51,883 bases of DNA, taken from the NCBI GenBank assembly GCA_000435195.1, contig FR880304.1, positions 29,610-81,492 on the forward strand. Direction: 5' to 3'. The stretch is from Clostridium sp. CAG:169. GTDB lineage: Bacteria; Bacillota; Clostridia; Oscillospirales; Ruminococcaceae. A model generated the notes under the pieces. That model was not told the DNA's origin, did not search any database, and was given only the letters and a program-made list of their open reading frames with translations. Made by a program: the position numbers and the translations under genes. Of the stretch, positions 19,964 to 46,937 are shown piece after piece; position 1 is the stretch's first letter, and each line of letters starts with the position of its first letter.

Positions 19964-21229
19964 TTATACACCCGCCGTCGGAGAGGTCTCGACTTCCTTT
20001 GCCAGAGCGGAATAGAAGAGCTTTTCGCCGTTCCTTATTACATACACATTTTCCCCATCGCCGGTATCCTCCACGTAACGGCGAAGGATGACAGAGGCGT
20101 ATTTCGGATCGAGTTCCATCATGTAGCAGATGCGGTTTAACTGCTCACAGGCCATCAGTGTGGAACCGGAGCCGCCGAAGGTATCAATAACTACAGAATT
20201 TTCCTGAGAGGAGTTCTGGATGGGATAGCCCAGAAGATCAAGCGGCTTGCTGGTCGGGTGATCCTTATTGCGCTTTGGCTTATCGTAGTTCCAGATGGTG
20301 GTCTGCTTGCGGTCGGAATACCACGGGTGCTTGCCGTTTTGCAAAAAGCCGTAGAGCACAGGCTCATGTTGCCATTGATAATCGGAGCGACCGAGCACGA
20401 GGCTGTTCTTTACCCAGATACACACACCGGCGAGGTGGAAGCCTGCGTCAATGAATGCCTTTCGGGATGTGAGTCCTTCGGTATCCGCATGGAAGCAGTA
20501 AGCGGCTCCGCCTTTTTCGAGGTGGTCAGCCATGTTCTTAAAAGCTGCCAGCAGGAACTTGTAAAATTCCTCGCCCTTGAGAGAGTCGTTCTGGATCGTA
20601 AGGCCGTCCGAGGCTTTAAAGGATACGCCGTAGGGCGGATCAGTCAGGACGAGGTTTGCTTTCTTGCCGCCCATGAGTTTTTCCACATCTTCCGGCGAGG
20701 TGGCGTCGCCACACATAACACGATGCCTACCGACCGTCCATATGTCGCCGTGCTCCACGAAGGAGGTCTTCTCAAGGGCAGCAGTGAGGTCAAAGTCATC
20801 ATCGGCAATGTCCTTCTCATTCCCGGTGCCGAGCAGCTTATCCAGTTCACCGGCATCAAAGCCGAGGAGAGATAGGTCAAAGGACTGATCCTGCAGGTCA
20901 GATAATTCGACCGACAGCATTTCCTCATCCCAGCCTGCGTTAAGCGCCAGCTGATTGTCCGCAAGGATATATGCACGCTTTTGTGCTTCCGTCAGGTTCT
21001 CGGCAAAAACGCAGGGCACGGTTTCATATCCTTCCTCGCGGGCAGCCGTAATGCGACCGTGGCCGACGAGGATGTTATAATCTGCGTCAATGACCGCCGG
21101 ACTCACAAAGCCGAACTCCCTGAGAGAAGCCCGGAGCTGTGCGATCTGCTCCTTGCTATGTGTCCGGGCATTCCGGGCATAAGGCACCAGTTTATCAATA
21201 GGTACCTGTTCCAATTTCTGTGTGTTCAT
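19964..21229 (-). CDS. ParB-like domain fused to N6A/N4C DNA methyltransferase
   Basis: PYARNARTH...GHGR (ParB-like), TDPPY motif IV, HPTSKP, DTFGGSGST motif I. Confidence 0.92.
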   Translation of the reverse strand: MNTQKLEQVPIDKLVPYARNARTHSKEQIAQLRASLREFGFVSPAVIDADYNILVGHGRITAAREEGYETVPCVFAENLTEAQKRAYILADNQLALNAGWDEEMLSVELSDLQDQSFDLSLLGFDAGELDKLLGTGNEKDIADDDFDLTAALEKTSFVEHGDIWTVGRHRVMCGDATSPEDVEKLMGGKKANLVLTDPPYGVSFKASDGLTIQNDSLKGEEFYKFLLAAFKNMADHLEKGGAAYCFHADTEGLTSRKAFIDAGFHLAGVCIWVKNSLVLGRSDYQWQHEPVLYGFLQNGKHPWYSDRKQTTIWNYDKPKRNKDHPTSKPLDLLGYPIQNSSQENSVVIDTFGGSGSTLMACEQLNRICYMMELDPKYASVILRRYVEDTGDGENVYVIRNGEKLFYSALAKEVETSPTAGV

Positions 21230-32475: not shown

Positions 32476-32520
32476 AAAAATATTCCGACCACAATCCGAA
32501 AGAGGGACAGTGGCCGGAAA
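32476..32520 (-). terminator. Terminator after the sigma-like gene
   Basis: Minus strand TTCCGGCCAC...GTGGTCGGAA then TATTTTT. Confidence 0.55.
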
Positions 32521-32531
32521 TGGTGTGATGA

Positions 32532-33050
32532 TTACTTGTTTTCGATCTTATGAAGCTCGGTGTAGTAGCGCTTCATTTGGTCAGCAAAGGTACGCTGCGG
32601 GCGACCGAGGGCTTCCGCGATCTTACGATCTGAAATCTTAGGATTGTCGAGACGCATCTGGATAATGCGGTCTGCATCCGGGTCAAGCTCACGGAAACGG
32701 GCAATGAGGTGCTTCAGTAGGTCGCGGTCAGCGTAGATATCTTCTATAGAAGGTTTGCTGTCCGGGATGTAATCGCCGAGGGTACCATTGCCGTCCGGAA
32801 GCGGCTCGTCGAGGGAAGTGGTATCGGGAGCGTGGTATTCGCACAGGTCGCACTGCCCGTCGCATTTCCAGAGATAGCGTTTGGTGCACATGCAACGTCC
32901 ATGATATTGCTCGCGTTTTTGTGTTGCCCAGATATCTGGGTAGAGGGCGCGATATTGCTCCTCTGTGATAGGGGTGAGTGTGACCTTGAAGGGATTCTCC
33001 GGGTCACGAAGTGGAAAGTAACGCTGGTTGTCATTGTTTTTCTTATTCAT
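32532..33050 (-). CDS. Phage sigma-70 region-4-like factor with Cys cluster
   Basis: CMC...CDGQCDLC, SLDEP, C-terminal HTH SDRKIAEALGRPQRTF. Confidence 0.75.
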   Translation of the reverse strand: MNKKNNDNQRYFPLRDPENPFKVTLTPITEEQYRALYPDIWATQKREQYHGRCMCTKRYLWKCDGQCDLCEYHAPDTTSLDEPLPDGNGTLGDYIPDSKPSIEDIYADRDLLKHLIARFRELDPDADRIIQMRLDNPKISDRKIAEALGRPQRTFADQMKRYYTELHKIENK

Positions 33051-33053
33051 AAT

Positions 33054-33186
33054 TCAACTCCTTTGGATTTGTTGAAATCCGCAGGAGCCGATTTATGTCC
33101 GAAGAGACAGAAAGACGGTCAAAGGCACAGTCCTCCCTGTTGGGATGAAACTATGTCCTTGGCCGTCATGCAGCTCTGCGGACTTC
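33054..33186 (-). ncRNA. Candidate structured cis-regulatory RNA leader of the sigma-like gene
   Basis: Nested helices with G-U pairs that work only on the minus strand; alternative pairing covers the RBS. Confidence 0.55.
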
Positions 33187-33205
33187 TATTTATTTATGGA
33201 TCGGG

Positions 33206-33421
33206 TTAAGCAGCAATTTTGTAGCTGTGTACTTTGAAAGCCGAAGTGGTGATCCGTGTCACGACGGTTCTTGTGTTGTCTCTCTCGACAGTGAAGGTCT
33301 CACCGACTGACAGGTAGGCTGTCGTGCGATGACCTTTATACAGCGAGGAGACGTAACCGGTCGCCGCATTGCCGCGGCAAGCTAAACGACCGAGACAGTC
33401 TCGGATTTCTTCCATCCGCAT
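33206..33421 (-). CDS. Hypothetical protein
   Basis: Perfect AAAGGAGG RBS; 71 aa. Confidence 0.65.
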   Translation of the reverse strand: MRMEEIRDCLGRLACRGNAATGYVSSLYKGHRTTAYLSVGETFTVERDNTRTVVTRITTSAFKVHSYKIAA

Positions 33422-33503
33422 TCCTCCTTTCTTAAATTCATAAATTAGCGGCTCCGCTTTTTAGCGAAGTGTTGCCCTAAAAAAAGAGGAGCTGGTACAT
33501 GGC

Positions 33504-34220
33504 TCAAGAGAGGAGTCCCAGCTCCGAGAGTCTTATCGCTGCAGAAGTTTGCGATACCTGATAGAATCCGGCGAACTGTTCCAGAATCCATTTTGACTTG
33601 GGAATCAGTCCAGCGGATACAAATTTGTTTTTCTTACTGCGGTCGATGATCATCTGAAATCCGTCAGCTATCGTTTCTTTTGGCATAAGTATGCGAGGGG
33701 CAATACCATTTGCCTGCCATTCGAGCCAATCTACGTCGGTCCAAACATCTTTGAAGGTTTCGTCGTCCTTAGCTTCAACGGGACAGCGTTGAGCTACGGC
33801 TCGTCCTCCCTTTAATGCCTCCATTGCCAGAAAGTAATTTCGATGATAAATCCAGTGAACACATTCATGTGCTACGGTATTACGGCGGCTTCCAAAGTTA
33901 CGCTTCAAGTAGGTGTCCGGATCAATGATCATGGTCTTTGCCTTAACGAACACTTCCCGATATTCATCTCCAGATGGATCGTAGATTTCAACAAGCCCAT
34001 CGGTAAAGCACATCTGGCCGAGAATACTAAGGTTCTCGGATAGGTGATATTCCTTGATGAGCAGATGCAGTTTATCTCTTGCGATCTCTTCGATAGGAAC
34101 GGGCATAGGCTTTTCGAGCGCCTCCGGACAGTGCTGCGCTAAGATTTCTGCTGCCTTGTCGTCGAATTCGGATTTGTACATCCGAGGGACAAGGGAGCTA
34201 AGATACGCTTCTTTTGTCAT
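33504..34220 (-). CDS. ImmA/IrrE-family metallopeptidase (anti-repressor)
   Basis: PVPIEEI, RRNTVAHECVHW (HExxH), EWQAN..A..ILMP, VS..SAAIRL. Confidence 0.9.
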   Translation of the reverse strand: MTKEAYLSSLVPRMYKSEFDDKAAEILAQHCPEALEKPMPVPIEEIARDKLHLLIKEYHLSENLSILGQMCFTDGLVEIYDPSGDEYREVFVKAKTMIIDPDTYLKRNFGSRRNTVAHECVHWIYHRNYFLAMEALKGGRAVAQRCPVEAKDDETFKDVWTDVDWLEWQANGIAPRILMPKETIADGFQMIIDRSKKNKFVSAGLIPKSKWILEQFAGFYQVSQTSAAIRLSELGLLS

Positions 34221-34222
34221 AC

Positions 34223-34606
34223 TTATCCTTTCTTCTCGATTTCTTCCAGAACGCGCTGCCAAAAGTCATCACCGAGTTTTTTATCGCTGGCTTTACGGAG
34301 AGCAGCACGAACATGCGGAATGTTTTCATCCATAATGTACTCTGGAAGATCCGGAGCGGCCTCATTCCGTTCGCGACCAGCAAGGTCGAACATCTCTGCG
34401 CGTTCCTCATCCGTTAGGCGGAGAACATCTGCTATCTTAAGCAGCATGCTCATTTCCGGAGGATTTCGTCTGCCTTTGATGATGTCGGAGAGATAAGTAG
34501 CGGTAGTTCCCATCGCCTGAGCAATATCCTTTAGAAGAATATCGCCGCCGTCAGAAGCACGTCCGAGCCTCTTCTCGTTGATGAATTTTCCAAAATCGCC
34601 TGTCAT
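34223..34606 (-). CDS. Xre-family HTH repressor
   Basis: LKDIAQAMGTTATYLSDIIKGRRNPP; paired with ImmA. Confidence 0.88.
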   Translation of the reverse strand: MTGDFGKFINEKRLGRASDGGDILLKDIAQAMGTTATYLSDIIKGRRNPPEMSMLLKIADVLRLTDEERAEMFDLAGRERNEAAPDLPEYIMDENIPHVRAALRKASDKKLGDDFWQRVLEEIEKKG

Positions 34607-34629
34607 AGTAAAATCTCCTTTTTTCGTCA

Positions 34630-34685
34630 ATTAGCGACTTCGCTAATCTGCTTATTAGTATAGCGAGAAAATGTGGATTTGTCAA
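34630..34685 (-). promoter_or_regulatory. Sigma-A promoter with downstream palindromic operator for the repressor/ImmA operon
   Basis: TTGACA (34680-34685) N17 TATACT (34657-34662); palindrome ATTAGCGA-CT-TCGCTAAT at 34630-34647. Confidence 0.8.
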
Positions 34686-34691
34686 GAGGGT

Positions 34692-34727
34692 AAAAGAAAA
34701 AGCCACGCTGCTTTTCACAACGTGGCT
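34692..34727 (-). terminator. Terminator of the kinase-GNAT-ASCH operon
   Basis: Minus strand AGCCACGTTG-loop-CAGCGTGGCT then TTTTCTTTT. Confidence 0.75.
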
Positions 34728-34733
34728 CCTGAA

Positions 34734-35105
34734 CTAATCCAGATATACAAATGACTGTGGGGCCTGACTGATTCCATAATCGGAGAGTTCTTTAGGGGTT
34801 TCGTATATTATTACGTCTTTGAGCTTGTAAGCAATGGCCTTATCTTTTCCGGCATAGTAGGAGAAGTAGAATTTCTTAGTAATGCCAGCTGCCGTTTTTG
34901 CAATTTCCCATATCTCCTTTGGAGTGCCCTCAAGAATTCTATCTATGGTAGCTTCACCAACCACCTGCTTCTGAGGGGATGATGCGTAAAAGATAATGCG
35001 GTTCACACCATCCTTTGGCTTGCTCTTGCGAAATTCGTATTGTTTTTTGCCTTCCAGTATTACTTTGGCATATTTAGGTTTAATCGATAATAACATTGTC
35101 GACAT
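34734..35105 (-). CDS. ASCH (PUA-like) domain protein
   Basis: LLSIKPKY...ILEGKKQYEFRK (GxKxxExR), IFYASSP...VGE, APQSFVY. Confidence 0.88.
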   Translation of the reverse strand: MSTMLLSIKPKYAKVILEGKKQYEFRKSKPKDGVNRIIFYASSPQKQVVGEATIDRILEGTPKEIWEIAKTAAGITKKFYFSYYAGKDKAIAYKLKDVIIYETPKELSDYGISQAPQSFVYLD

Positions 35106-36177
35106 CGATGTTGCCCTCCCGTAGAATTGTCTCAAATTGACTTCTCGTGTAACGGAAATTCATCGGGTGGGTTCCGGGCCAGCAATCATTATCCTTCAAC
35201 CATTTCCAGTTCACATTATTCCCAGCGCCGAAATAGCCGTAGTAAAGTAGCTCAATCAGCGTTAGAGAAGCCCATGTATCATATTTTATTTTCAGTTCGT
35301 CTTCGTCGTATACGGACTTGTTCCCGACCATATGAAGGAACTCATCATAGGTGCAAAGGGCCTGTCCGTTTGACTTTATCTTTTCAATTCTTGTCGCCAC
35401 GCAATATGATGTTATGACAGATTTATATCCCGGACGACCGTCGGTGCCAGTGTATTTACGATAAATCAATACCGGCTCTCCGACCTTAAAAGCCAAGCTG
35501 TAAGGCTTTCCGATGTAAACCTTTTTTAGCCCATTTGCCACGCTGATGTCAACGCGTTCTTGCAACGTGTGCGCAAGTTCAGATGATGCAAACATTGTGT
35601 CATGGTAGGCCATGTCAATTGCGAGGCATCCTGCGTACTGCATTTGATTGTTTAAGAAAGGGAATGCTTTGCATGGATCACTAAAATCGAGGTTTCTACG
35701 ATCTTTAATGTATACTCGCTCGCCATTCAAATTATTACCAACGTGTGCAAAGCCATATTTTTCGAGAAGAAAGATCAGGCTGGTGTGCTTCTCAAATACA
35801 GTCACATATATTTCATCGGTACCGAGATCTCTCCACTGCCAAAGTGTTAAGCCAAGCGCACCCTCGCCAATTCTTTGATGACGATATCGCTCATCAATTT
35901 TGATTGTAGTGATTTTAAGTCGAGCTACTTTAGGCAGTATGGTGCCGTCGGCAAGTTTAATTTCTTCGGCTTCAGCGGGCTTGAGATTAACAAAAGCGCC
36001 AATACCCTGATCATCTTCAAAAACCAGAGCTTTCTTGCCATCTGCAGCTTTTGCAGCAAACCATTTTACAAAACTGGTACTGGTTGAGGTTCCCGGATAA
36101 TCGGCTTTTAAAGAATCAAAGAAGGGATCATCGAGACTAATCTCGGAGAATAGCTTTCGCTCAAATTTGCCTGCCAT
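35080..36177 (-). CDS. GNAT acetyltransferase fused to an EVE/PUA-like domain
   Basis: DDPFFDSLKADY, KITTIKI...RYRHQRIGE (motif A-like), LEKYGF; C-terminal KVYI...FKVGEPVLIYR. Confidence 0.78.
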   Translation of the reverse strand: MAGKFERKLFSEISLDDPFFDSLKADYPGTSTSTSFVKWFAAKAADGKKALVFEDDQGIGAFVNLKPAEAEEIKLADGTILPKVARLKITTIKIDERYRHQRIGEGALGLTLWQWRDLGTDEIYVTVFEKHTSLIFLLEKYGFAHVGNNLNGERVYIKDRRNLDFSDPCKAFPFLNNQMQYAGCLAIDMAYHDTMFASSELAHTLQERVDISVANGLKKVYIGKPYSLAFKVGEPVLIYRKYTGTDGRPGYKSVITSYCVATRIEKIKSNGQALCTYDEFLHMVGNKSVYDEDELKIKYDTWASLTLIELLYYGYFGAGNNVNWKWLKDNDCWPGTHPMNFRYTRSQFETILREGNIDVDNVIID

Positions 36178-36190
36178 AAACAGCTCCTCC

Positions 36191-36706
36191 TTAAAGTGAC
36201 TTTATAAAATTAATTGCCTGTGCAAGGTCTCCGGCACCGCCAGAAACAAAGAGTCTCGCGCCGATTTCAGTCGCGACTTCTTTTGCGTAGGCGCATTCTT
36301 CCTGCTGAAAATCCTCAATGTCTTGAACAGAGGCTTCAATCCCATCGCGCTCCTTGCGTCGGGCAGCAATAACTTCTGACTTTTCCATCAACAAGATAAT
36401 CGCCTCCGGTTTCAGTGCAGTGAAGGTGTCGTAAGGAATCCGAGTAATTTCTCCGGATGCATTCAATAAGCAGAAGTGTCCATCCAGAATAAAGTCTTGC
36501 CCAGAGTCTCTTAACTCACTGACTGCCTGAAGGAGGTATTGCTGGTTGTCGTCAATGTCTGGTATGAGTTTGTCTTTGGCAAAACCTGAGTGCTTTTTCC
36601 GCGTGATCAATGTACTGGCGGAATAGGACTCTATGCCAGTTTCCGTTTTGACCATATCGCAGAAGTAGGACTTTCCGACGCCGTGGACACCGCTTATAAA
36701 GATCAT
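36191..36706 (-). CDS. P-loop NMP-kinase-like protein (archaeal adenylate kinase / AAA_17-18 type)
   Basis: IFISGVHGVGKS Walker A, SAS.LI, ILDGHF, RRKERD lid; ATG 36706 fits the AAGGAGG spacing. Confidence 0.82.
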   Translation of the reverse strand: MIFISGVHGVGKSYFCDMVKTETGIESYSASTLITRKKHSGFAKDKLIPDIDDNQQYLLQAVSELRDSGQDFILDGHFCLLNASGEITRIPYDTFTALKPEAIILLMEKSEVIAARRKERDGIEASVQDIEDFQQEECAYAKEVATEIGARLFVSGGAGDLAQAINFIKSL

Positions 36707-36759
36707 GAACGACACGCCTCCTTAGTACAAAATCGGCTGAGAAACCAGCCGTCTGTGTT

Positions 36760-36857
36760 ATTATAGCAGATTGGAGCGCAAAATTCAAGAGAAAACGAAA
36801 AATAATCCTGCAATCGCAGGAGAAAATCTTGAAATCTGATGAGAAACGTGATATAAT
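36760..36857. promoter_or_regulatory. Back-to-back sigma-A promoters with a central palindrome
   Basis: Minus TTGAAT(36783-88) N17 TATAAT(36760-65); plus TTGAAA(36829-34) N17 TATAAT(36852-57); both TGn-extended; TCCTGC-AATC-GCAGGA at 36806-36821. Confidence 0.8.
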
Positions 36858-36910
36858 AAGCAAGTCGGAGTTTATGTGTAGACATTTTGGCAGAAAATGG
36901 AGGTTGGCAC

Positions 36911-37117
36911 ATGGCCATTAGTTACAAGAAATTATGGAAGCTGTTAATTGATAAAGATATGAAGAAGAAAGATTTGCAGCGTGTAGCTGGGATCAGTGCG
37001 GCATCCGTTACGAAGCTCGGTAAGAACGAAAATGTAAACACAGAGATTATAGAGAAAATCTGTGTAGCTTTGCAATGTGATGTCAGCGACATAATGGAAA
37101 TGGTCGATGATGACTGA
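36911..37117 (+). CDS. Xre/Cro-C1 HTH regulator
   Basis: ISYKKLWKLLIDKDMKKKDL..AGIS....KLGKNENV....C..L.CDVSDIME. Confidence 0.9.
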   Translation: MAISYKKLWKLLIDKDMKKKDLQRVAGISAASVTKLGKNENVNTEIIEKICVALQCDVSDIMEMVDDD

Positions 37118-37186: not shown

Positions 37187-38695
37187 ATGGCTGATAAAAC
37201 CAACGCCAATATTGGCTTTGAAAAACAACTATGGGATGCGGCTTGTGTTCTTTGGGGACATATTCCTGCTGCAGAATACAGAAAGGTAATCATTGGGCTT
37301 ATTTTCCTGCGCTATATTTCCGCAGCTTTTGATAAGAGATATCAGGAGCTTGTTGCGGAGGGTGACGGATTTGAGGACGACCGTGATGCTTATACGATGG
37401 AGAATGTGTTCTTTGTGCCGGAGGAGGCAAGATGGAGCACGATAGCTTCTGCTGCTCATACTGCTGAAATTGGAACGGTTATCGATACGGCTATGAGAGC
37501 TATTGAAGCCGAAAATAAGACCTTGAAGAATGTCCTTCCTAAAAACTACGCCAGTCCGGATCTCGATAAGCGAGTGTTGGGTGATGTGGTTGATATCTTC
37601 ACAAACAATATCGATATGAGAGATACAGAAGAAAGTGAAGATCTTCTGGGCCGTACTTATGAATACTGTATCGCGCAGTTTGCAGAGAAGGAAGGTGTAG
37701 GCGGAGGCGAATTCTATACGCCGTCCAGTGTGGTTAAGACGCTTGTTTCTATTCTGCGTCCGTTCGATAACTGCCGTGTGTATGATTGTTGCTGCGGTTC
37801 CGGCGGTATGTTTGTGCAGAGTGCAAAGTTCATTCAGGCTCATTCAAGCAAGCGCGGAGCCATTTCCGTTTACGGGCAGGAGGCAAACGCGGATACATGG
37901 AAGATGGCCAAGATGAACATGGCAATCCGTGGTATCGACGCAGATTTCGGTCCTTATCAGGCAGATACCTTTACTAATGACTTGCACCCGACTCTGAAGG
38001 CGGATTTCATTCTGGCGAATCCTCCGTTTAACTATCACCCTTGGAATCAGGAAAAGCTGCTGGAAGATGTCCGCTGGAAATATGGCACACCTCCTGCCGG
38101 TAATGCAAACTACGCATGGATTCAGCACATGATCCACCATCTTGCACCGAACGGAAAGATTGGTCTGGTGCTTGCAAACGGAGCACTTTCCACACAGTCA
38201 AGTGGTGAGGGTGAAATTCGTAGAAAGATTATAGAGGACGATCTGATCGAGGGCATTATCGCCATGCCGACGCAACTCTTTTATAGCGTGACTATCCCGG
38301 TTACACTATGGTTCATCACAAAGGGCAAGAAGCAAAAAGGCAAGACACTCTTTATTGATGCCCGGAAAATGGGCCACATGGTTGACCGTAAGCATAGAGA
38401 CTTCACCGAAGAAGATATCCAGAAGCTGGCGGATACCTTTGAGGCCTTCCAGAATGGTACGCTTGAGGATGTGAAGGGCTTCTGTTCTGTTGCCACATTG
38501 CAGGATATCGCAAAGCAGGATTATATCCTGACGCCGGGACGCTATGTTGGGATCGAGGAGCAGGAAGATGACGGCGAGCCTTTCGAGGATAAAATGGCCA
38601 GATTGACATCAGAACTGTCAGATATGTTTGCTAAGTCCCATGAATTGGAAGACGAGATCAGGAGGAAGTTAAGAGCGATTGGGTATGAAATCTGA
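37187..38695 (+). CDS. hsdM: Type I restriction-modification methyltransferase subunit
   Basis: GEFYTP, YDCCCGSGGMF (motif I), YGQE, ANPPF (motif IV), LTPGRYVG. Confidence 0.96.
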   Translation: MADKTNANIGFEKQLWDAACVLWGHIPAAEYRKVIIGLIFLRYISAAFDKRYQELVAEGDGFEDDRDAYTMENVFFVPEEARWSTIASAAHTAEIGTVIDTAMRAIEAENKTLKNVLPKNYASPDLDKRVLGDVVDIFTNNIDMRDTEESEDLLGRTYEYCIAQFAEKEGVGGGEFYTPSSVVKTLVSILRPFDNCRVYDCCCGSGGMFVQSAKFIQAHSSKRGAISVYGQEANADTWKMAKMNMAIRGIDADFGPYQADTFTNDLHPTLKADFILANPPFNYHPWNQEKLLEDVRWKYGTPPAGNANYAWIQHMIHHLAPNGKIGLVLANGALSTQSSGEGEIRRKIIEDDLIEGIIAMPTQLFYSVTIPVTLWFITKGKKQKGKTLFIDARKMGHMVDRKHRDFTEEDIQKLADTFEAFQNGTLEDVKGFCSVATLQDIAKQDYILTPGRYVGIEEQEDDGEPFEDKMARLTSELSDMFAKSHELEDEIRRKLRAIGYEI

Positions 38696-39029
38696 TGAGA
38701 TAAAACGAGGTGACAAAATGGATTTTTATATGAAAAGTGCCAAAAACAACTATTTAGCAAGACTAACATATACAGAGGGCCAGTTTGTTTTGAAAAAAGG
38801 TTCTACCGTTTCTCAGAATGTTTCTAACCATTTCAAGAGCTACAAGACTGTTATTAAGCGAAGAGAGGAAGCAGGAATAAAAGATGACGAGCTGACGCTG
38901 AAGAAGGATATTGTTTTTAACAGTTCATCTGTTGCCGGTGAGTTTGTTTGCGGCAGTAGTTGCAACGGCCCTTCATCTTGGAAAACAGAAAGTGGTATTA
39001 CGCTGAAGGAGTGGATGCAAAGTCTATGA
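38685..39029 (+). CDS. DUF4357-like (RAMA-related) protein
   Basis: FVLKKGS...L.KDIVFNSSSVAGEFVCGSSCNGPSSWK..G.TLKE; start uncertain (38685 or 38718). Confidence 0.75.
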   Translation: MKSDEIKRGDKMDFYMKSAKNNYLARLTYTEGQFVLKKGSTVSQNVSNHFKSYKTVIKRREEAGIKDDELTLKKDIVFNSSSVAGEFVCGSSCNGPSSWKTESGITLKEWMQSL

Positions 39030-40222
39030 TAAATGGAAAGATTTCAGATGTATGCTCCAACGTTTATAGCGGGGGCACACCGAATAAAAAGCACGACGAG
39101 TATTATGTCGGAGGCAATATTCCGTGGCTTAATACCTCGGAAATAAAATTCAATCGGATAACCGCTACAGAAAAATTCATTACTGATGAAGGTTACTCGG
39201 CTTCTTCAGCAAAATGGGTTCCAGCGAATGCCGTTATTGTTGCAATGTATGGAGCAACAGCCGCAAGAGTTGCTATTTCAAAGATTCCCTTAACGACTAA
39301 TCAGGCCTGCTGTAATTTGATCATCGATGACAGTAAAGCCGATTATAGATATGTATACTATTGGCTATGTTCAAGATACACAGAATTAGCTTCACTCGCT
39401 AATGGAGGAGCACAGCAAAATCTAAATGCTGGCCAAATCAAGGATTTTCCTATTGCGCTTCCTCATATCGACGCACAAAAGAAAATTGCTGATTTATTGT
39501 CTGCATTTGATGACAAAATCGAGGTGAACAATGAAATAAACGAGAATTTACTTCAGCAGGCAAGCACTATTTTCAAGCATTGGTTTACCGATAATCCAAG
39601 TCTTGACACTTTGGAGCAGGTTCCCCTTGCAGATTTGTGTTTGGTTGTTACCAAAGGGACAACACCTACTACTCTTGGAAAACCGTTCGTCTCTGAAGGC
39701 ATTAACTTCATAAAGGCCGAGTCTATATTGGACAATCACGCTATCGATAAGAACAAGTTTGCGTTCATTGACAGTGAAACGAACGATTTGTTGAGGCGCT
39801 CAATAATCAGTTCAGGAGACATAGTATTCACTATTGCTGGTACTCTTGGACGTTTTGCTTTAATAGATGATAGTGTATTGCCTGCCAACACAAATCAGGC
39901 TGTCGCAATCATCCGTGCAAATAAGAGCAAAGTAACGCCTGAATACCTATACAGTTTCTTCTTGGGAAACTGGCATAACGACTACTATACAAAGCGTATT
40001 CAGCAAGCCGTTCAAGCAAATTTAAGCCTTGGAACCATAAAGTCATTACCTATTCCAATTCTCTCGGATAAAGCAATGCCAGAGTATCTTGGGATTATAA
40101 GCCCTATTATCACAATGACTAAGGCCAATGAGCTTGAAATAACAAGACTCCGAACAATGCGAGATGCCCTGCTACCACAGCTGATGTCTGGTCAACTTGA
40201 CGTTTCCGACCTTGACCTCTAA
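39026..40222 (+). CDS. hsdS: Type I RM specificity subunit
   Basis: Two TRD repeats (SGGTP / KGTTP), QKKIADLL..FDDKI, RDALLPQLMSG; ATGA overlap at 39026. Confidence 0.94.
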   Translation: MINGKISDVCSNVYSGGTPNKKHDEYYVGGNIPWLNTSEIKFNRITATEKFITDEGYSASSAKWVPANAVIVAMYGATAARVAISKIPLTTNQACCNLIIDDSKADYRYVYYWLCSRYTELASLANGGAQQNLNAGQIKDFPIALPHIDAQKKIADLLSAFDDKIEVNNEINENLLQQASTIFKHWFTDNPSLDTLEQVPLADLCLVVTKGTTPTTLGKPFVSEGINFIKAESILDNHAIDKNKFAFIDSETNDLLRRSIISSGDIVFTIAGTLGRFALIDDSVLPANTNQAVAIIRANKSKVTPEYLYSFFLGNWHNDYYTKRIQQAVQANLSLGTIKSLPIPILSDKAMPEYLGIISPIITMTKANELEITRLRTMRDALLPQLMSGQLDVSDLDL

Positions 40223-40323
40223 GCCGCTAAATTCTCGTTTGAACTGGAGCAACACAAACGTAATGAGCGAATTACCCGGAAAAGGGTATCATGATAGATA
40301 GTACATACAAAGGAGCGATTGAT

Positions 40324-43300
40324 ATGTCAGGATTTTATACGGAAGCTGACTATGAGAATTCCATCATAGAGCTATTCCAAGGAATGGGATACCGTCACGT
40401 TTACGGCCCTGATATTGAGAGGGATTTTAACAGCCCTCTATATGAAGATGAACTGACGGCTGCGTTGCATCGCCTGAATCCCTCTATGCCAGAGGATGCG
40501 ATCAGTGATGCCCTGTTCAAATTGAAAAATTTTGAGAATGCTGAACTGGTCCAGAAGAATGCTGTCTTCATGGATTATATTCAGCATGGCGTTGAAGTGC
40601 GCTATTTTGTTAAGGGCGAGGAGCGCTCCGGCCTCGTATACCTTGTTGACTATAAGAATCCTGACAATAACTCTTTTATCGTTGCAAACCAGTGGACCTT
40701 TATTGAAAACAGCAATAAACGTCCGGATGTCCTTCTCTTCTTGAATGGACTTCCAGTTGTTCTTGTAGAGCTAAAGTCTCCATCGCGGGAAGAGACAGAT
40801 GCTTCCGAAGCATACCTACAGATCAGAAACTATATGCAGGAGATTCCGTCGATGTTCATTTATAACTGCATTTGCGTTATGAGTGACCATCTAACCTCAA
40901 AGGCAGGAACGATTACTTCCGGCGAGGACCGCTTCATGGAGTGGAAAACCAAAGACGGAAGTTATGAAAATACTCAGTACGCACAGTTTGATACTTTCTT
41001 TGAGGGTATCTTTGCCCGTGAACGCTTGCTGGACATTATAAAGAACTTTATCTGCTTCTCCAACGAAGGATTAAAGCAGTTTAAAATACTGGCCGGATAC
41101 CATCAGTATTTCGCGGTCAATAAAGCAGTAGAGTCTACGAGACGCGCCACAGAGACCGACGGAAAAGGTGGTGTATTCTGGCACACACAAGGTAGCGGAA
41201 AATCTCTGTCAATGGTTTTTTATGCTCATCTGCTGCAGGAAGCGCTTGATAGCCCGACAATCGTGGTACTTACAGACCGAAACGATCTGGACGATCAGTT
41301 GTTTGGCCAGTTCGCAAAGTGTAAAGATTTTCTGCGTCAGGAGCCGTTGCATGCTGAGAGCCGGGAACATTTGAAGTCCTTGCTTGATGGCAGACAGGCA
41401 AACGGGATCATCTTCACCACAATGCAGAAATTTGAGGAATCCCACGAGCCTTTATCCGAGCGTAGGAACATTGTTGTCATGGCAGACGAAGCGCATCGTG
41501 GGCAGTATGGTCTGAAAGAAAAGGTCGATGCGGAGACCGGTAAAATTAAGATCGGCACCGCGCGAATCATCCGTAACAGCTTACCGAATGCTACATACAT
41601 AGGCTTCACCGGTACACCTATTTCCATGAAAGATAGAAGCACCCGTGAAGTCTTCGGAGATTACATTGACGTTTACGATATGACTCAGGCTGTCGAGGAC
41701 GGCGCTACCCGTCCGGTTTATTATGAGAGCCGCGTTATTAAACTAAAGCTGGATGAAGCGACGCTTCGCCTGATTGATACCGAGTACGATATTATGGCAA
41801 ATAACGCCGATCCAGATGTAATAGCCAAGAGCAAACGTGAGCTTGGCCAGATGGATGCCATCCTCGGCAACGATCAGACAATCGCTTCACTGGTAGATGA
41901 TATTCTCGATCACTATGAGAACTATCGTGCAAACCTGCTCACCGGCAAGGCGATGATCGTTGCTTATTCCCGCGCCATTGCTATGAAGATCTATGACCGT
42001 ATCATGCAGCTCAGACCTTCATGGACGGAGAAGGTCGCTGTTGTTATGACAGAAAGCAATAAGGACCCGGAGGAGTGGCGTGCCGTTATCGGAAACAAGC
42101 GTCACAAGGATGAGCTGGCGAAAAAGTTTAAAGACAACGATAGCCCTCTTAAGATTGCGATTGTAGTAGACATGTGGCTGACGGGCTTTGATGTACCTTC
42201 ACTGGCCACGATGTATGTTTATAAGCCAATGCAGGGGTACAACCTTATGCAGGCGATTGCACGTGTAAACCGTGTATTTGGAGATAAAGAAGGCGGACTG
42301 GTTGTAGATTATGTCGGCATCGCAGCTGCGCTTAAGGAAGCGATGAACGATTATACCTCCCGTGATAAGAAGAACTACGGTGATACCGATGTTGCAAAGG
42401 TGGCCTATCCGAAGTTCTTGGAGAAGCTCTCCATCTGCCGCGATATTTTCCACGGGTACGATTATTCTAAATTTACTACCGGAACTGACCTTGAGCGATC
42501 AAGGGCTATCAGTGGCGCAGTTAACTTTATTGTTGCCGTTGATAAAGAACGTGAGCGTGAAGATTTCCTGAAGGAAGCCCTTATGCTCCGTCAGGCGCTG
42601 TCGCTCTGCTCATCGTTAGTAGAGGAAAGTCTCCGAATTGAAGCTGCATTCTTTGAATCGGTCCGTGTGCTTGTTATGCGCCTTATGAATCAGGGCGAGG
42701 GAAAGAAAATCTCCCTGCCGGAAATGAATGCGAGAATAAACGCGCTCCTCAGCCAGAGCGTGAAGAGCGAAGGCGTCATCAATCTCTTTTCGGACGTGTC
42801 GGAGGAGTTCTCTCTGTTTGATCCGAAGTTCCTTGAGGAAATCTCCAAGATGAAGGAGAAAAACCTCGCGGTTGAATTGCTGAAGAAGTTGATAGCCGAG
42901 CAGGTGCAGATTTACCGTCGTACCAATGTAGTCAAGTCTGAGAAATTCAGCGAGATCATCCAAAGCGCCATGAACCGTTATCTGAACGGTATGCTTACAA
43001 ATGAGGAAGTCATTCAAGAGCTCCTTAATCTGGCAAAGCAGATTGCTGCAGCACAGAAAGAAGGTGACCAGCTTGGCCTAACAGCGGATGAGCTGGGATT
43101 CTATGATGCCTTAACAAAGCCGCAGGCGATTAAGGACTTCTATGAGAATGAAGAACTGATTGCCATCACAAAAGAGCTGGCGGATACGCTTCGTAAGAAT
43201 CGCACGATTGATTGGCAGAAACGCGACTCCGCCAGAGCAAAAATGCGGATGATGATTAAGAAGCTCCTGAAGAAACATCGCTACCCACCTGAAGGCATGG

Positions 43301-43458
43301 ACGACGCAGTCCAGACCGTTATGACACAGTGTGAGCTGTGGACGGATAACGCAGATATGGAACAGCGCGAACATAAGGCGGTTAATTATTCCTTTCGCCA
43401 TGAACAGAATTTGAGTATGGTTGCTGAAGAACCTGCGCCATATGGAAAGAAAGATTGA
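40324..43458 (+). CDS. hsdR: Type I RM restriction subunit
   Basis: RPDV...VELK nuclease, HTQGSGKS, DEAHR, GFTGTP, MWLTGFD, QAIARVNR. Confidence 0.96.
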   Translation: MSGFYTEADYENSIIELFQGMGYRHVYGPDIERDFNSPLYEDELTAALHRLNPSMPEDAISDALFKLKNFENAELVQKNAVFMDYIQHGVEVRYFVKGEERSGLVYLVDYKNPDNNSFIVANQWTFIENSNKRPDVLLFLNGLPVVLVELKSPSREETDASEAYLQIRNYMQEIPSMFIYNCICVMSDHLTSKAGTITSGEDRFMEWKTKDGSYENTQYAQFDTFFEGIFARERLLDIIKNFICFSNEGLKQFKILAGYHQYFAVNKAVESTRRATETDGKGGVFWHTQGSGKSLSMVFYAHLLQEALDSPTIVVLTDRNDLDDQLFGQFAKCKDFLRQEPLHAESREHLKSLLDGRQANGIIFTTMQKFEESHEPLSERRNIVVMADEAHRGQYGLKEKVDAETGKIKIGTARIIRNSLPNATYIGFTGTPISMKDRSTREVFGDYIDVYDMTQAVEDGATRPVYYESRVIKLKLDEATLRLIDTEYDIMANNADPDVIAKSKRELGQMDAILGNDQTIASLVDDILDHYENYRANLLTGKAMIVAYSRAIAMKIYDRIMQLRPSWTEKVAVVMTESNKDPEEWRAVIGNKRHKDELAKKFKDNDSPLKIAIVVDMWLTGFDVPSLATMYVYKPMQGYNLMQAIARVNRVFGDKEGGLVVDYVGIAAALKEAMNDYTSRDKKNYGDTDVAKVAYPKFLEKLSICRDIFHGYDYSKFTTGTDLERSRAISGAVNFIVAVDKEREREDFLKEALMLRQALSLCSSLVEESLRIEAAFFESVRVLVMRLMNQGEGKKISLPEMNARINALLSQSVKSEGVINLFSDVSEEFSLFDPKFLEEISKMKEKNLAVELLKKLIAEQVQIYRRTNVVKSEKFSEIIQSAMNRYLNGMLTNEEVIQELLNLAKQIAAAQKEGDQLGLTADELGFYDALTKPQAIKDFYENEELIAITKELADTLRKNRTIDWQKRDSARAKMRMMIKKLLKKHRYPPEGMDDAVQTVMTQCELWTDNADMEQREHKAVNYSFRHEQNLSMVAEEPAPYGKKD

Positions 43459-43474: not shown

Positions 43475-45544
43475 ATGGACGCACGTAAAGGTAACATCTA
43501 CGAGATATTAAACGGAAACAAGCAGTTTCTGATTCCGGTTTATCAGCGGTATTACAGCTGGGATATCGAACAATGTAAACGCTTGTGGAATGACATCGTT
43601 GAGATGCAGAAAAAGGGCAAAGTGGGCCATTTTGTAGGTTCCATCGTGAATATTGCGGAACAAGCAATGCCGACCGGTGTCCAGAAATATATGATTATAG
43701 ACGGCCAGCAGCGAATGACCACGTTGTCATTACTCCTGCTTGCCCTGCGTGACTACGCAATCAATAATCCGGAAGACACCACCATCAATGCCCGACGCAT
43801 TGATAATATGCTTTTGAAAAATGAGTACGAAAGCGGCGATGAACGCTATAAACTGCTTCTGACGGAAACTGACCGGGATATCCTGATGCGGCTTGTGGAA
43901 GAAAAGCCTATTCCGGATGACACTCGCTCAAAGCTGCTGGACAACTATAAATTCTTTGCCGGAAAGATTGCGGATAAAGAATTACAGCCTGCTGAGGTAT
44001 ACGAATCCATAGGCAAGCTGCAGATCGTAAATATAACGCTGGATCGATCTGTGGATGATGCGCAGGCTATTTTTGAGAGCCTGAATTCCACAGGTAAAGA
44101 ACTGTCTGAATCCGATTTGATTCGGAACTATGTTCTTATGGGTCTGGAGCCTACTGAGCAGACATATGTTTATGAGCACCTCTGGCGTCCGATGGAATTG
44201 CTGTTCGTTTATGAGACGCAAGACTCCGTTATGGACAGATTCTTCAGAGATTATCTGACCATGAAGATTACACGCATTCCGAAGCAGGATCGTGTATATG
44301 AGGAATTCAAGCTCTACCACCTGAACTGCGAATTTAGCACTATCAGGGAGCTATGTCAGGACCTGCTCACTTATGCTAAATACTATACGGATATGGTATT
44401 CAAGCGGAGCAGCAATCCAGCACTCAAGTCTCTTTACGAAGATATCAACGATCTGCGAATGGAGGTATCTTATCCATTCCTACTTAAAGTACATAATGAT
44501 TATGCCGAGGGTATCATTTCTGAGGATGACCTGAAGTTGATCATCAGACTGTGTATCAGCTATGTTTTCCGTCGCAGCATCTGTGATATACCGACGAATT
44601 CTCTGAACAAGACTTTTGCAACGCTGAGGAATGAAATCAGACAGGATGATTACGTCAATTCCATTAAGGCCTTCTTTGTCATGCGTGACGATTACAAAGA
44701 GTTTCCGAACGATGATAAGTTCACGGCTGCCTTTGTGTCGAGAGATATTTACACTATGCGCTCACGCAACTTCATCCTTAGCCATCTTGAGAACTATGGC
44801 AACAAGGCACCGATCATCATTGAGAATTATACGATTGAGCATATTATGCCTCAGAATAGTAGCTTGAGCCCGGAGTGGCAGCAGATGCTTGGAGTGAACT
44901 GGCGCGAGGTGCAAAAGACCTATCTGCACACCATTGGAAACTTAACGCTTACAGCATACAATTCTGAAATGAGCGACCATCCATTTATGGTCAAAATGGA
45001 TATGGAGGGTGGCTTTAAAGAGAGCGCACTCCGTTTGAATGCTTATGTTGTAAAGCTCACAGAATGGAATGAGCAGAGAATAAAAGAAAGGGCTTCATTG
45101 CTGGCGGATAAAGCTAAACAGATCTGGGCTTTCCCGGATATGACTGCTGCGGAGCTGGCTCCTTATCAGACGGTGGAGAAACCGGCAGAACGCTACAGCC
45201 TCGAAACCTATGATACAAATGTTTTCACAAAGACTCTGTTTGAAGTTCTGGACCGCCGAATCCAGAATCTCTCTCCCGATGTAAAGCGCGAGTTCAAAAA
45301 GTTGTATGTGGCCTATAAACTGGATACCAATTTCGTAGATATTGTGTTCCAGAAACAGAGACTTCGTATTTCAGTAAATATGAAGTTCTCAGAAGTGATT
45401 GATCCGAATGGAATCTGCCGAGATATAACCGGTCTTGGCAGATGGGGCAACGGTGATGTTGAACTTTACATGGAGCATACATCAGACGTTGATCAGATCA
45501 TGGAGATCGTGGAGCAGTCTTACCGGATTCAGGCTGATGAATGA
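43475..45544 (+). CDS. GmrSD-like type IV (modification-dependent) restriction protein, DUF262-DUF1524 plus DUF5655-like C-terminus
   Basis: IPVYQR.YSW, IIDGQQR, IFESLNSTG, TIEHIMPQ...IGNLTL...N; C-terminal GRWGNGDVE. Confidence 0.88.
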   Translation: MDARKGNIYEILNGNKQFLIPVYQRYYSWDIEQCKRLWNDIVEMQKKGKVGHFVGSIVNIAEQAMPTGVQKYMIIDGQQRMTTLSLLLLALRDYAINNPEDTTINARRIDNMLLKNEYESGDERYKLLLTETDRDILMRLVEEKPIPDDTRSKLLDNYKFFAGKIADKELQPAEVYESIGKLQIVNITLDRSVDDAQAIFESLNSTGKELSESDLIRNYVLMGLEPTEQTYVYEHLWRPMELLFVYETQDSVMDRFFRDYLTMKITRIPKQDRVYEEFKLYHLNCEFSTIRELCQDLLTYAKYYTDMVFKRSSNPALKSLYEDINDLRMEVSYPFLLKVHNDYAEGIISEDDLKLIIRLCISYVFRRSICDIPTNSLNKTFATLRNEIRQDDYVNSIKAFFVMRDDYKEFPNDDKFTAAFVSRDIYTMRSRNFILSHLENYGNKAPIIIENYTIEHIMPQNSSLSPEWQQMLGVNWREVQKTYLHTIGNLTLTAYNSEMSDHPFMVKMDMEGGFKESALRLNAYVVKLTEWNEQRIKERASLLADKAKQIWAFPDMTAAELAPYQTVEKPAERYSLETYDTNVFTKTLFEVLDRRIQNLSPDVKREFKKLYVAYKLDTNFVDIVFQKQRLRISVNMKFSEVIDPNGICRDITGLGRWGNGDVELYMEHTSDVDQIMEIVEQSYRIQADE

Positions 45545-45584: not shown

Positions 45585-46937
45585 ATGGTTTATAATACGT
45601 TCATAAAATGTCAGGTTTGCGGAAGTATTACCAGAGTCCGATTACAGGTTGGATGGCAAGAAGAACATCCTATTGTTGTGGCTTGCGGTAAATGTGGTAC
45701 TTCCTTATCTGGCAGCGTTAAGATAGGACAAAACCGACCGGGGCTAAAGTTTTCTTTTGACAATGCGGATGAAATCCCGGATGCTGAAGCTGATTACATG
45801 GTTGAATGCTCTGGTGAATTTCCGACCGTGAAACAAGGCAAAGCAGCGGAGTTGGAAGAAGTCGTCATTACGCCGTTTATCCGCTATATGAATCGTATGA
45901 AGACGGATGATTCATATGAGCAGTTCGGAAAAGCGGTATCACAGCTTAATGCAACAGAAAAGAAATGGAAGAGCTATAAAAGAATCATTGACCTCTTCAG
46001 AAATAATAGTGAATACCTTGTTCAGGAGATACAAAAGGAATTCTCCGGACAATACTTTCAGTGCAGAGATGAGTCTGAGGTATTGAGAGCTATTCATATG
46101 ATTGAGGTTCATGGGTTTTATTCTGCACTCAAAAAAGACATCTTGGATAATCTCTCTTTTAGTGCAGGAATTATGAAACTGGACTCTGTTCAGCTGAAGA
46201 GCTTAGTAGACTTCTTAAATTCACATGATGGTTATCATCTTGAGGAGCTACAGGATTTGATATATAAGGTCTATGATGATTTTATAAAAATATACCAGCG
46301 CCTTATTCCAGCTCTTGCATTACAGTATTGCAAAGAGGATGCTTTTGATCTTGAAGTTGAAGGTTCGACAACGAGTAGCTTTGATAGTGTAAAGCAGTTT
46401 TATTTGAATGTTTATGAAGCCCTTGGGAATCTGCTCGTTATCCCGGTCGCTCTTAATAACATAAAATACAGGGCTGATGTGAATTCGATGAATCCATTGG
46501 AAAAGAATGTGTCTTCATTGGAGGATTTTATAAAGCTCACAAAGGCATCAAGGTACCATTTCTGCTTGAACACAGAAGTCTACACCAATTTCTTGGATGT
46601 TGTAGTAAATGCAAAACTGAGAAATGCGATTGGACATAATGATGTTGAATATGACGCAGTCAGTCAGGTTATTACTTACATTCCGAATCCGAAAGACAGA
46701 ACCATAAAGAAAACGGAATACCTTCTCGAATTTGAAAATGAAGCGATGCACATGTTTCAGGCATTATTGGGTGTTTCAGAATACCTGTATCGCCTGAGAG
46801 AACTTTCACTTATGTATGACGGTAAAATACCACTTATGGTTAAGGAAAGAGCAAACTGGCCGAAAAAGATAGGCCGTAATGATCCGTGTCCATGTGGAAG
46901 CGGTAAAAAATACAAATTCTGTCATGGGAAGAATTAG
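45585..46937 (+). CDS. Zn-ribbon + putative HEPN + SEC-C motif protein
   Basis: CQVC...CGKC N-terminus, LRNAIGH (RxxxxH), [21 protein letters not shown]. Confidence 0.72.

Follow-up and report, generated by a model that had tools for sequence, protein, structure and literature searches.

Operons encoding (PIN)-GNAT-EVE proteins are nearly always accompanied by an ASCH gene and often by a gene for an AAA_17 protein, as described in the passages of Bell, Wolf and Koonin (2020) that deal with them, in which Iyer et al. (2013) are credited and none of the modules is given as characterised. According to the same passages, PIN-less GNAT-EVE genes are unlinked to type I restriction-modification (RM) and are found in beta- and gamma-proteobacterial prophages. 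Here, a three-gene cassette of this kind is described in Clostridium sp. CAG:169, within a stretch of 51,883 nucleotides (nt) of contig FR880304.1 (positions 29,610 to 81,492) that is called the window hereafter and to which all coordinates refer. The cassette is almost certainly a prophage-borne member of the (PIN)-GNAT-EVE + ASCH (+AAA_17) module, which corresponds to PDC-M11 in PADLOC and to the pair named GevT/GevA. Judged by sequence comparison, it is an ordinary member of a family that has already been catalogued and named. Its genes and signals are the following.

36191..36706, minus strand: P-loop gene resembling nucleoside monophosphate (NMP) kinases, 171 amino acids (aa); AAA_17 E 2.9e-18, model pLDDT 94.9
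35080..36177, minus strand: GNAT domain (~1-165) followed by a PUA-like reader domain (~179-358), 365 aa, PDC-M11A / GevT-like; PDLC04419 E 1.8e-61
34734..35105, minus strand: ASCH protein, 123 aa, PDC-M11B / GevA-like; PDLC04425 E 1e-42, PF04266 E 3.7e-5
36760..36788, minus strand: promoter-like site TTGAAT-17-TATAAT with TG extension (extended -10), 10 of 12 matches in a consensus scan
36734..36751, minus strand: short G+C-rich hairpin with a 7-pair stem, in the ~47-nt leader from promoter to kinase start
34698..34730, minus strand: terminator-like hairpin and T run directly 3' of the ASCH stop, 14 pairs of which 6 G-C, loop of 5, T-rich tail

The two PADLOC matches lie next to each other on the same strand, and that of the GNAT-reader protein is nearly complete, with residues 5-364 aligned to positions 12-356 of a profile of 357. 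In the control genome of Bacillus subtilis, PDLC04419 gave matches at E up to 0.001 and none at 1e-20. The GNAT-reader protein also matches phrog_6345 (E 7.2e-54). In parallel, a lambdoid Escherichia coli phage (GenBank PV340567.1) carries, directly after cI, homologues annotated as GevT toxin and GevA antitoxin. A tblastn comparison with this locus covered 99% of the query (E 3e-25); the pair is homologous, but GevT is only 31.7% identical to the window protein. A preprint using PhiR47 phages does not mention the GevT/GevA genes, and the literature search returned the term 'GNAT-EVE' from Bell et al. (2020) only. The sequence-only reading of the window had presented the cassette as a candidate for a new system, a claim overturned by the PADLOC check, by the operon of Bell et al. 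(2020) and by the GevT/GevA record. Nevertheless, the match falls short of one to an already characterised system, since the family is catalogued and named only.

The cassette consists of three translationally coupled minus-strand genes (36706-34734), for which the longest-open reading frame (ORF) calls are 36191-36715 (174 aa), 35080-36177 (365 aa) and 34734-35135 (133 aa). Because of Shine-Dalgarno spacing, ATG 36706 is the likely start of the kinase gene, with AAGGAGG 10 nt upstream, rather than GTG 36715, the start of the longest ORF, and ATG 35105 that of the ASCH gene, with GGGAGGG 8 nt upstream. The kinase and GNAT genes are separated by 13 nt, the ribosome-binding site of the second overlapping the stop of the first, and the GNAT and ASCH genes overlap by 26 nt. 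The scan of a 3.4-kb region gave 12 promoter-like sites vs 5.8 +/- 2.6 in shuffles, and 9 terminator-like sites vs 3.0 +/- 2.0. The promoter-like and terminator-like sites of the cassette are plausible as real signals, and the earlier description of a tightly coupled trio with its own promoter and terminator was upheld in this form. The leader region also contains an inverted repeat (36727-36758), and its hairpin may act as an operator or attenuator. The cassette is indeed AT-richer, as had been remarked, with 44.0% G+C vs 51.9% in the phage body (window 1-33000).

RNA-library contigs from three coded studies (P13-P15) cover 34810-36292 and 33645-34557 at identities of at least 99%. This cover of the cassette is consistent with expression and does not prove it, DNA carry-over being possible. 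The RNA-library contigs X15-X17 do not cover 36293-36711, the 5' part of the kinase gene, or 32500-33435; no conclusion is drawn from these stretches because contigs cannot show absence and the kinase varies among strains.

Compared with the operons of Bell et al. (2020), the cassette has the same three proteins in the same order and a prophage site next to the repressor region. The AAA_17 gene, which is optional there, is present; the cassette differs in having no PIN domain, which is optional as well. In contrast to the PIN-less genes of that study, the clade to which the cassette belongs has mostly Clostridia as hosts and frequently has RM genes upstream.

Acetyltransferase and ASCH protein

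The three domain calls made from the letters alone were confirmed, namely AAA_17 with an adenylate-kinase fold, GNAT with a PUA-like fold, and ASCH (PF04266) with the GxKxxExR motif. The model of the GNAT-reader protein (pLDDT 91.1, predicted TM-score 0.90) places the GNAT domain at the very N-terminus, with no PIN domain before it. Pfam Acetyltransf_1 is matched at E 0.043, below the cut-off of that family. The fold of the domain is close to many GNATs (Z 12-14, with Z 14.0 to 2fia_B), and R97, R102, G104, E105 and G106 of motif A, the acetyl-CoA site, are invariant in 42 sequences. From the model and the alignment, the protein is plausible as an active writer of acetyl marks.

The C-terminal domain (179-358) has a PUA-like fold with one fold match, the ASCH protein ZmASCH (5guq_A, Z 12.3, root-mean-square deviation (rmsd) 3.4 over 141 residues). 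The fold searches used the whole GNAT-reader model, and their lists were filled by the GNAT domain, with this single row for the C-terminal one. The PUA-like domain has a conserved pocket that includes H192, D193, K219, Y221 and R240. The domain is called PUA-like and not EVE in the strict sense because Pfam EVE gives no match in the protein; in two distant relatives it reaches E 0.007-0.009. ZmASCH is also the closest solved relative of the cassette ASCH protein, matched by the family profile at E 7.2e-19 over near full length in the Protein Data Bank (PDB), where otherwise three weak matches were found. Since profile-profile comparison of the GNAT-reader and ASCH families found no similarity (probability 0.2%), the PUA-like domains of the two proteins are related by fold only.

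In the ASCH protein, S7, K21, E24, R26, Y40, Q117 and S118 are invariant in 52 of 52 partner sequences. Part of this set is known from EOLA1, an ASCH deacetylase of free N4-acetylcytidine (ac4C): in the sections of a 2026 preprint on EOLA1 that concern the pocket and its relatives, the pocket is given as K21-E24-R26 with Ser7, the R26A mutant as inactive, and the pocket of YqfB as K21-T24-R26. The same sections place both enzymes in ac4C salvage and link YqfB-clade genes to TmcA in some operons. Like EOLA1 and YqfB, the cassette protein is a stand-alone ASCH domain of ~120 aa with the GxKxxExR motif, and it shares Ser7 with EOLA1; unlike them, it belongs to a mobile and probably conflict-related cassette rather than to salvage of free ac4C. 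These residues make it plausible as an eraser of the K-E-R amidohydrolase type. The eraser role that had been proposed earlier thus gains support, as Ser7, Lys21, Glu24 and Arg26 are the EOLA1 residues, and is at the same time called into question by ZmASCH, which was reported as an RNase.

The two genes are rarely parted. A scan of one genome per species yielded 80 loci, mostly from Clostridia metagenome-assembled genomes (MAGs), with a few labelled Akkermansia, Actinomyces, Coriobacteriales or methanogens. The ASCH gene lies directly downstream of the GNAT gene in 79 of them, mostly with the same overlap, and some relatives are ASCH-GNAT-EVE fusion proteins (P0215, P0227), so that the coupling is tight. 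The deviating order was seen at L071:8001-10458, which reads GNAT-reader, kinase-like (33% identity), Xre-like and ASCH. A complex prediction for the GNAT-reader and ASCH proteins (score 0.00, mark 0.32) has no bearing either way.

Because the ASCH pocket is invariant and the GNAT domain intact, a writer and an eraser of an N-acetyl nucleobase mark are favoured, as a tentative reading that could well turn out otherwise. In such a toxin-antitoxin-like system, the GNAT domain would use acetyl-CoA to N-acetylate the amino group of a nucleobase, with the fused PUA-like domain holding the target base, either in nucleic acid or as a nucleotide. Its ASCH partner, translationally coupled on the same mRNA, would be a K-E-R amidohydrolase that protects the lysogen by taking the mark off again. 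This balance would be upset when the cell is infected or the element lost, and acetylation would then block replication or translation. The adenylate-kinase-like protein would assist where present, by phosphorylating a nucleoside monophosphate connected with the acetylation chemistry.

DarT-DarG offers a precedent in which a toxin writes on nucleic-acid bases and an antitoxin erases the mark enzymatically. The likeness lies in the proposed logic only, that is, a base-marking transferase with a mark-removing hydrolase on mobile elements and a role in phage defence. The folds are unrelated, the chemistry is ADP-ribosylation and not acetylation, and there is no homology to the cassette, so that the analogy is one that we infer.

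Several points weigh against a writer and an eraser of nucleobase acetylation. The structures closest in fold to the GNAT domain are acetyltransferases of proteins, polyamines and small molecules, all tied at Z 12-14, and the fold searches found no nucleic-acid acetyltransferase among them. EOLA1 and YqfB are absent from the 7 PDB matches of the ASCH family profile (E up to 10), so the K-E-R equivalence is drawn from the shared motif and not from an alignment. The kinase, directly upstream of the GNAT gene in 46 of 75 loci with enough flank, is missing in the other 29 and is thus not essential. Where relatives carry a PIN or TIR domain, that domain may be the one that kills, and the GNAT and reader parts could then serve as a sensor rather than as the toxin. 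A literature search found no published biochemical test of the cassette family and no paper behind the names GevT and GevA, which come from a single GenBank record. The 145 PDC systems of the preprint by Payne et al. (2024) are, in the portion that introduces them, untested and found inside BREX, DISARM or type I RM loci. Finally, ZmASCH (ZMO0922, PDB 5GUS/5GUQ) was reported as a weak, Mg-dependent single-strand RNase in vitro and not as a deacetylase. Its tested residues Y47 and S128 correspond to the invariant Y40 and S118 of the cassette family and K53 to a majority Lys, K46.

The latter findings raise the question of whether the ASCH protein is itself the effector, a single-strand RNase like ZmASCH, with the GNAT-reader protein sensing or licensing and the kinase modulating. 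ZmASCH is a clear homologue in which the equivalents of Y47, Q127 and S128 are invariant in the cassette ASCH, and PIN RNase fusions among the relatives also point to RNA. However, the RNase assay was run with a 100-fold excess of protein, and no acidic residues that bind metal were found in ZmASCH; besides, the phage record names the ASCH gene an antitoxin, and the gene is distal and translationally coupled, as we infer antitoxin-like partners often to be. Such an effector role is improbable.

The optional kinase

The kinase model is closest in fold to an archaeal adenylate kinase (6ln3_A, Z 19.8, rmsd 2.3, 170 of 171 residues), followed by 7owe (Z 17.9), with the next kind of kinase only at Z 13.8, and the best rows of Foldseek are archaeal adenylate kinases as well. 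The family profile matches OdinAK (E 2.5e-6), and the P-loop, the DGH motif and the lid arginines (RRxxRD) are kept in 35 sequences. The archaeal-type enzymes (6LN3, 7OWE, 1NKS) thus share the fold, P-loop, D-x-H and lid arginines with the cassette protein but only ~15-20% identity, and the latter is prophage-encoded and optional. An adenylate-kinase orthologue is ruled out by the NCBIfam equivalog PRK04040, for which the kinase scores 36.1 bits vs a cut-off of 155. The NMP-kinase fold of the model suggests a link to nucleotides.

A further reading is a pathway of free nucleotides instead of nucleic acids, in which the GNAT-reader protein would acetylate an NMP, such as a cytosine nucleotide bound in the pocket of the PUA-like domain. 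The kinase would then phosphorylate the product towards a triphosphate that poisons phage replication or transcription, and in uninfected cells the ASCH protein would hydrolyse the free acetylated nucleotide, by analogy with EOLA1 and YqfB acting on ac4C. Exchange of GNAT alleles would change the nucleotide or the trigger. This pathway as a whole is quite improbable.

Allele exchange and relatives

The GNAT gene has been swapped between kept flanks. In four loci (L044, L053, L059 and L070), the flanks of the window are preserved at 82-100% DNA identity (hsdM, HTH_26, kinase, ASCH, Xre and M78, where present), while the 5' half of the GNAT gene drops to 60-64% and its 3' half is unalignable, identity returning at the ASCH start. 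The encoded GNAT proteins are 53% identical to that of the window along their whole length and 96-98% identical among themselves. Two very different GNAT alleles thus share one ASCH type (93-97% identical). Over all pairs of loci, GNAT identity below 60% with ASCH identity of at least 85% was found in 32 of 2485, and the converse in none. Variation among alleles is not confined to one domain, as the per-column entropy of the GNAT-reader protein is alike in the GNAT part (1.19 bits) and in the rest (1.32). Replacement at gene borders would be expected of a specificity determinant under conflict.

A different break is present in L001, which is 100% identical to the window in DNA from the GNAT gene onward and only 85% in the kinase gene. 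This record is titled Listeria costaricensis, and its identity to the window stays at 99-100% from the GNAT gene as far as the genes for a phage exonuclease and a single-strand DNA-binding (SSB)-like protein. Its G+C is 48%, while the other close relatives all come from Clostridia; contamination or a recent transfer may explain the contig.

The shared ASCH type bears on the possibility of a classical GNAT toxin of the AtaT/TacT type, in which aminoacyl-tRNA would be acetylated, the PUA-like domain would dock a modified tRNA base and the ASCH protein would bind or act on RNA. AtaT/TacT-type systems typically pair the GNAT toxin with a DNA-binding antitoxin. The partner here is instead an ASCH protein with an invariant hydrolase-type motif and no helix-turn-helix (HTH) or ribbon-helix-helix (RHH) protein, and one ASCH type for two alleles of 53% identity would be unusual for a tightly fitted binding antitoxin. 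The wording toxin/antitoxin of the phage record agrees with a GNAT toxin, and in the pertinent passages of Bell et al. (2020) aminoacyl-tRNA is proposed as the target and PUA-like domains are said to be common in tRNA enzymes. A GNAT toxin structure, 7byy_A, is among the fold matches, but at Z 12.2 it is tied with dozens of unrelated GNATs (Z 12-14). Overall, this type of toxin is unlikely.

The alleles can also be set against the neighbouring restriction genes. The sequence-only reading had entertained a module guarding the RM system, an idea left unsupported because GNAT and HsdS alleles vary independently: in L001 the GNAT allele is 100% the same while HsdS is 67% identical, and in L053 a fragment of HsdS is 92% identical while the GNAT allele is at 53%. 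Moreover, just 9 of 43 loci contain an HsdM-like gene in the 5 kb upstream of the cassette. Restriction and methylase families dominate the nearest upstream ORFs. When the two nearest ORFs of at least 150 aa were tallied on each side of the cassette in 32 loci (64 ORFs per side), the upstream set comprised N6_Mtase (7), ResIII (7), HsdM_N (6), N6_N4_Mtase (4), SWI2_SNF2 (3), HSDR_N (3), MmeI (2) and others, and no family was found more than three times downstream.

This frequency of RM genes just upstream would suit a DNA-marking or anti-restriction module, in which bases of phage or host DNA would be acetylated as a shield or self mark and the ASCH protein would read or trim the mark. A probable orphan ParB-methyltransferase in the same prophage points the same way, and so do the passages of Bell et al. 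(2020) that suggest protection of phages against host RM and ascribe to Iyer et al. (2013) the proposal of DNA base acetylation. The GNAT allele, however, does not track the adjacent HsdS allele, 34 of the 43 loci lack an HsdM-like gene in the 5 kb upstream, and the cassette sits in the lysogeny/cargo region with its own promoter, away from replication or packaging genes. To our knowledge, acetylated DNA bases have not been reported in phages, although no search was aimed at them. DNA marking appears improbable.

Fusions were surveyed by scanning ten longer homologues for domains. An N-terminal ASCH domain was present in four of them (P0215, P0227, P0245, P0256), P0245 having a weak PIN match too, and P0220 had a weak PIN match only. 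P0077 holds the C-terminal two thirds of an AAA_17 domain, for which fusion or read-through is possible. In the same scan, the N-terminal extensions of P0203, P0241 and P0253 received no domain call. In P0228, a distant metagenomic relative of 532 aa, a TIR domain (TIR_2 E 1.7e-13) precedes the GNAT-reader part; PIN fusions are mentioned in the relevant passages of Bell et al. (2020), and TIR is not mentioned there. Homologues number 759 in a word-indexed search and 830 clusters at 50% identity, and fourteen phage records carry them. Nevertheless, the spread is patchy, as 2 of 100 further genomes from this family contained the module, and the one same-genus genome searched did not.

The TIR fusion, the allele exchange, the position in prophage cargo beside RM and GmrSD genes, the prevalence of restriction and methylase families among the nearest upstream ORFs, the patchy spread and the toxin/antitoxin annotation all speak for a conflict role. 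The cassette is on balance probably a conflict module expressed in the lysogen, either toxin-antitoxin-like or an exclusion system. A role outside conflict would make it a mobile trio for nucleotide salvage or RNA modification, with an ac4C-type writer, a deacetylase and an NMP kinase. Such a trio would be in line with the ac4C salvage by YqfB and EOLA1 and the vicinity of YqfB-clade genes to TmcA in some operons, as outlined in the 2026 preprint. Yet prophage cargo, lower G+C, patchy spread, allele swap and TIR/PIN fusions are traits of conflict genes, and the kinase stays at 36 bits vs the adenylate-kinase cut-off of 155, which makes salvage highly improbable.

Prophage surroundings and meaning for the family

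The element in the window is a prophage of the siphovirus type, with terminase, portal, protease, major head, tape measure and tail proteins and a PolA/primase/SNF2 replication module. Its cargo end holds the cassette, a type I RM system, a GmrSD-type enzyme and a protein with a SEC-C motif. The earlier remark that the cassette belongs to the cargo of a prophage and stands back to back with type I RM genes is therefore correct. The genes and signals nearest to the cassette are listed below.

37187-38695 (hsdM), 38960-40222 (hsdS) and 40291-43458 (hsdR): type I RM operon, divergent from the cassette
36887..37117, plus strand: HTH_26 (Cro/C1-type) gene, 76 aa, first on the RM side; PF13443 E 8.1e-21
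34223-34630, minus strand: Xre-type HTH gene, a neighbour of the cassette and not part of it; HTH_31 E 7.8e-8
33504-34262, minus strand: M78/ImmA-like peptidase gene, a neighbour and not part; Peptidase_M78 E 7.5e-4, capP E 9.6e-9
34685-34657: promoter-like site of the Xre/M78 pair

The HTH_26 protein is a possible regulator of the intergenic region shared with the cassette, as suggested by linkage only. In 23 of 68 loci, including some in which no HsdM-like gene was found, a divergent homologue is located at most 500 nt upstream of the cassette. The divergent promoter region (36727-36847) contains a 21-nt tandem direct repeat (36804-36845), whose first copy holds a palindrome, as well as two copies of a 16-nt motif (36730-36745 and 36832-36847) at a distance of 102 nt; these repeats are candidate operators for the HTH_26 protein. 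On the other side, the Xre and M78 genes are probably a prophage immunity pair. Downstream of the cassette, an Xre gene was found in 16 of 62 loci and Xre with M78 in 15.

Other observations concern the rest of the cargo and the phage body. Between hsdM and hsdS, and overlapping both, a 116-aa ORF (38679-39029, plus strand) has matches to DUF4357 (E 5e-14) and, in PADLOC, to the C-terminal part of PDC-S14 (E 3.1e-23); it is an embedded gene or gene fragment inside the RM operon. The GmrSD-type enzyme (43475-45544, plus strand; GmrSD_N, GmrSD_C) has an extra C-terminal domain resembling DUF5655 / PDC-S18. It is followed by a 450-aa protein (45585-46937, plus strand) whose sole call is a terminal SEC-C motif. 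Finally, a ParB-like domain fused to a DNA methyltransferase (19964-21229, minus strand; phrog_498 E 1.3e-180) adjoins the small terminase gene and is probably an orphan anti-restriction methylase.

The window adds no new kind of system, and its interest lies in the open biochemistry of the family rather than in this single instance. The module is widespread and has been catalogued since 2013, with no published acetylation substrate. New in the present analysis are the synteny of the ASCH gene (79/80 loci) and of the kinase gene (46/75), the invariant ASCH pocket (52/52) and the swap of GNAT alleles. The window thereby provides leads for the whole family, namely an invariant ASCH pocket that can be mutated, two naturally occurring GNAT alleles in a single phage background and a kinase with a clear NMP-kinase fold. 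If writing and erasing of acetyl marks on nucleobases proved to be true, the family would represent a chemically new class of toxin-antitoxin or phage-exclusion systems that act through the acetylation of nucleobases.

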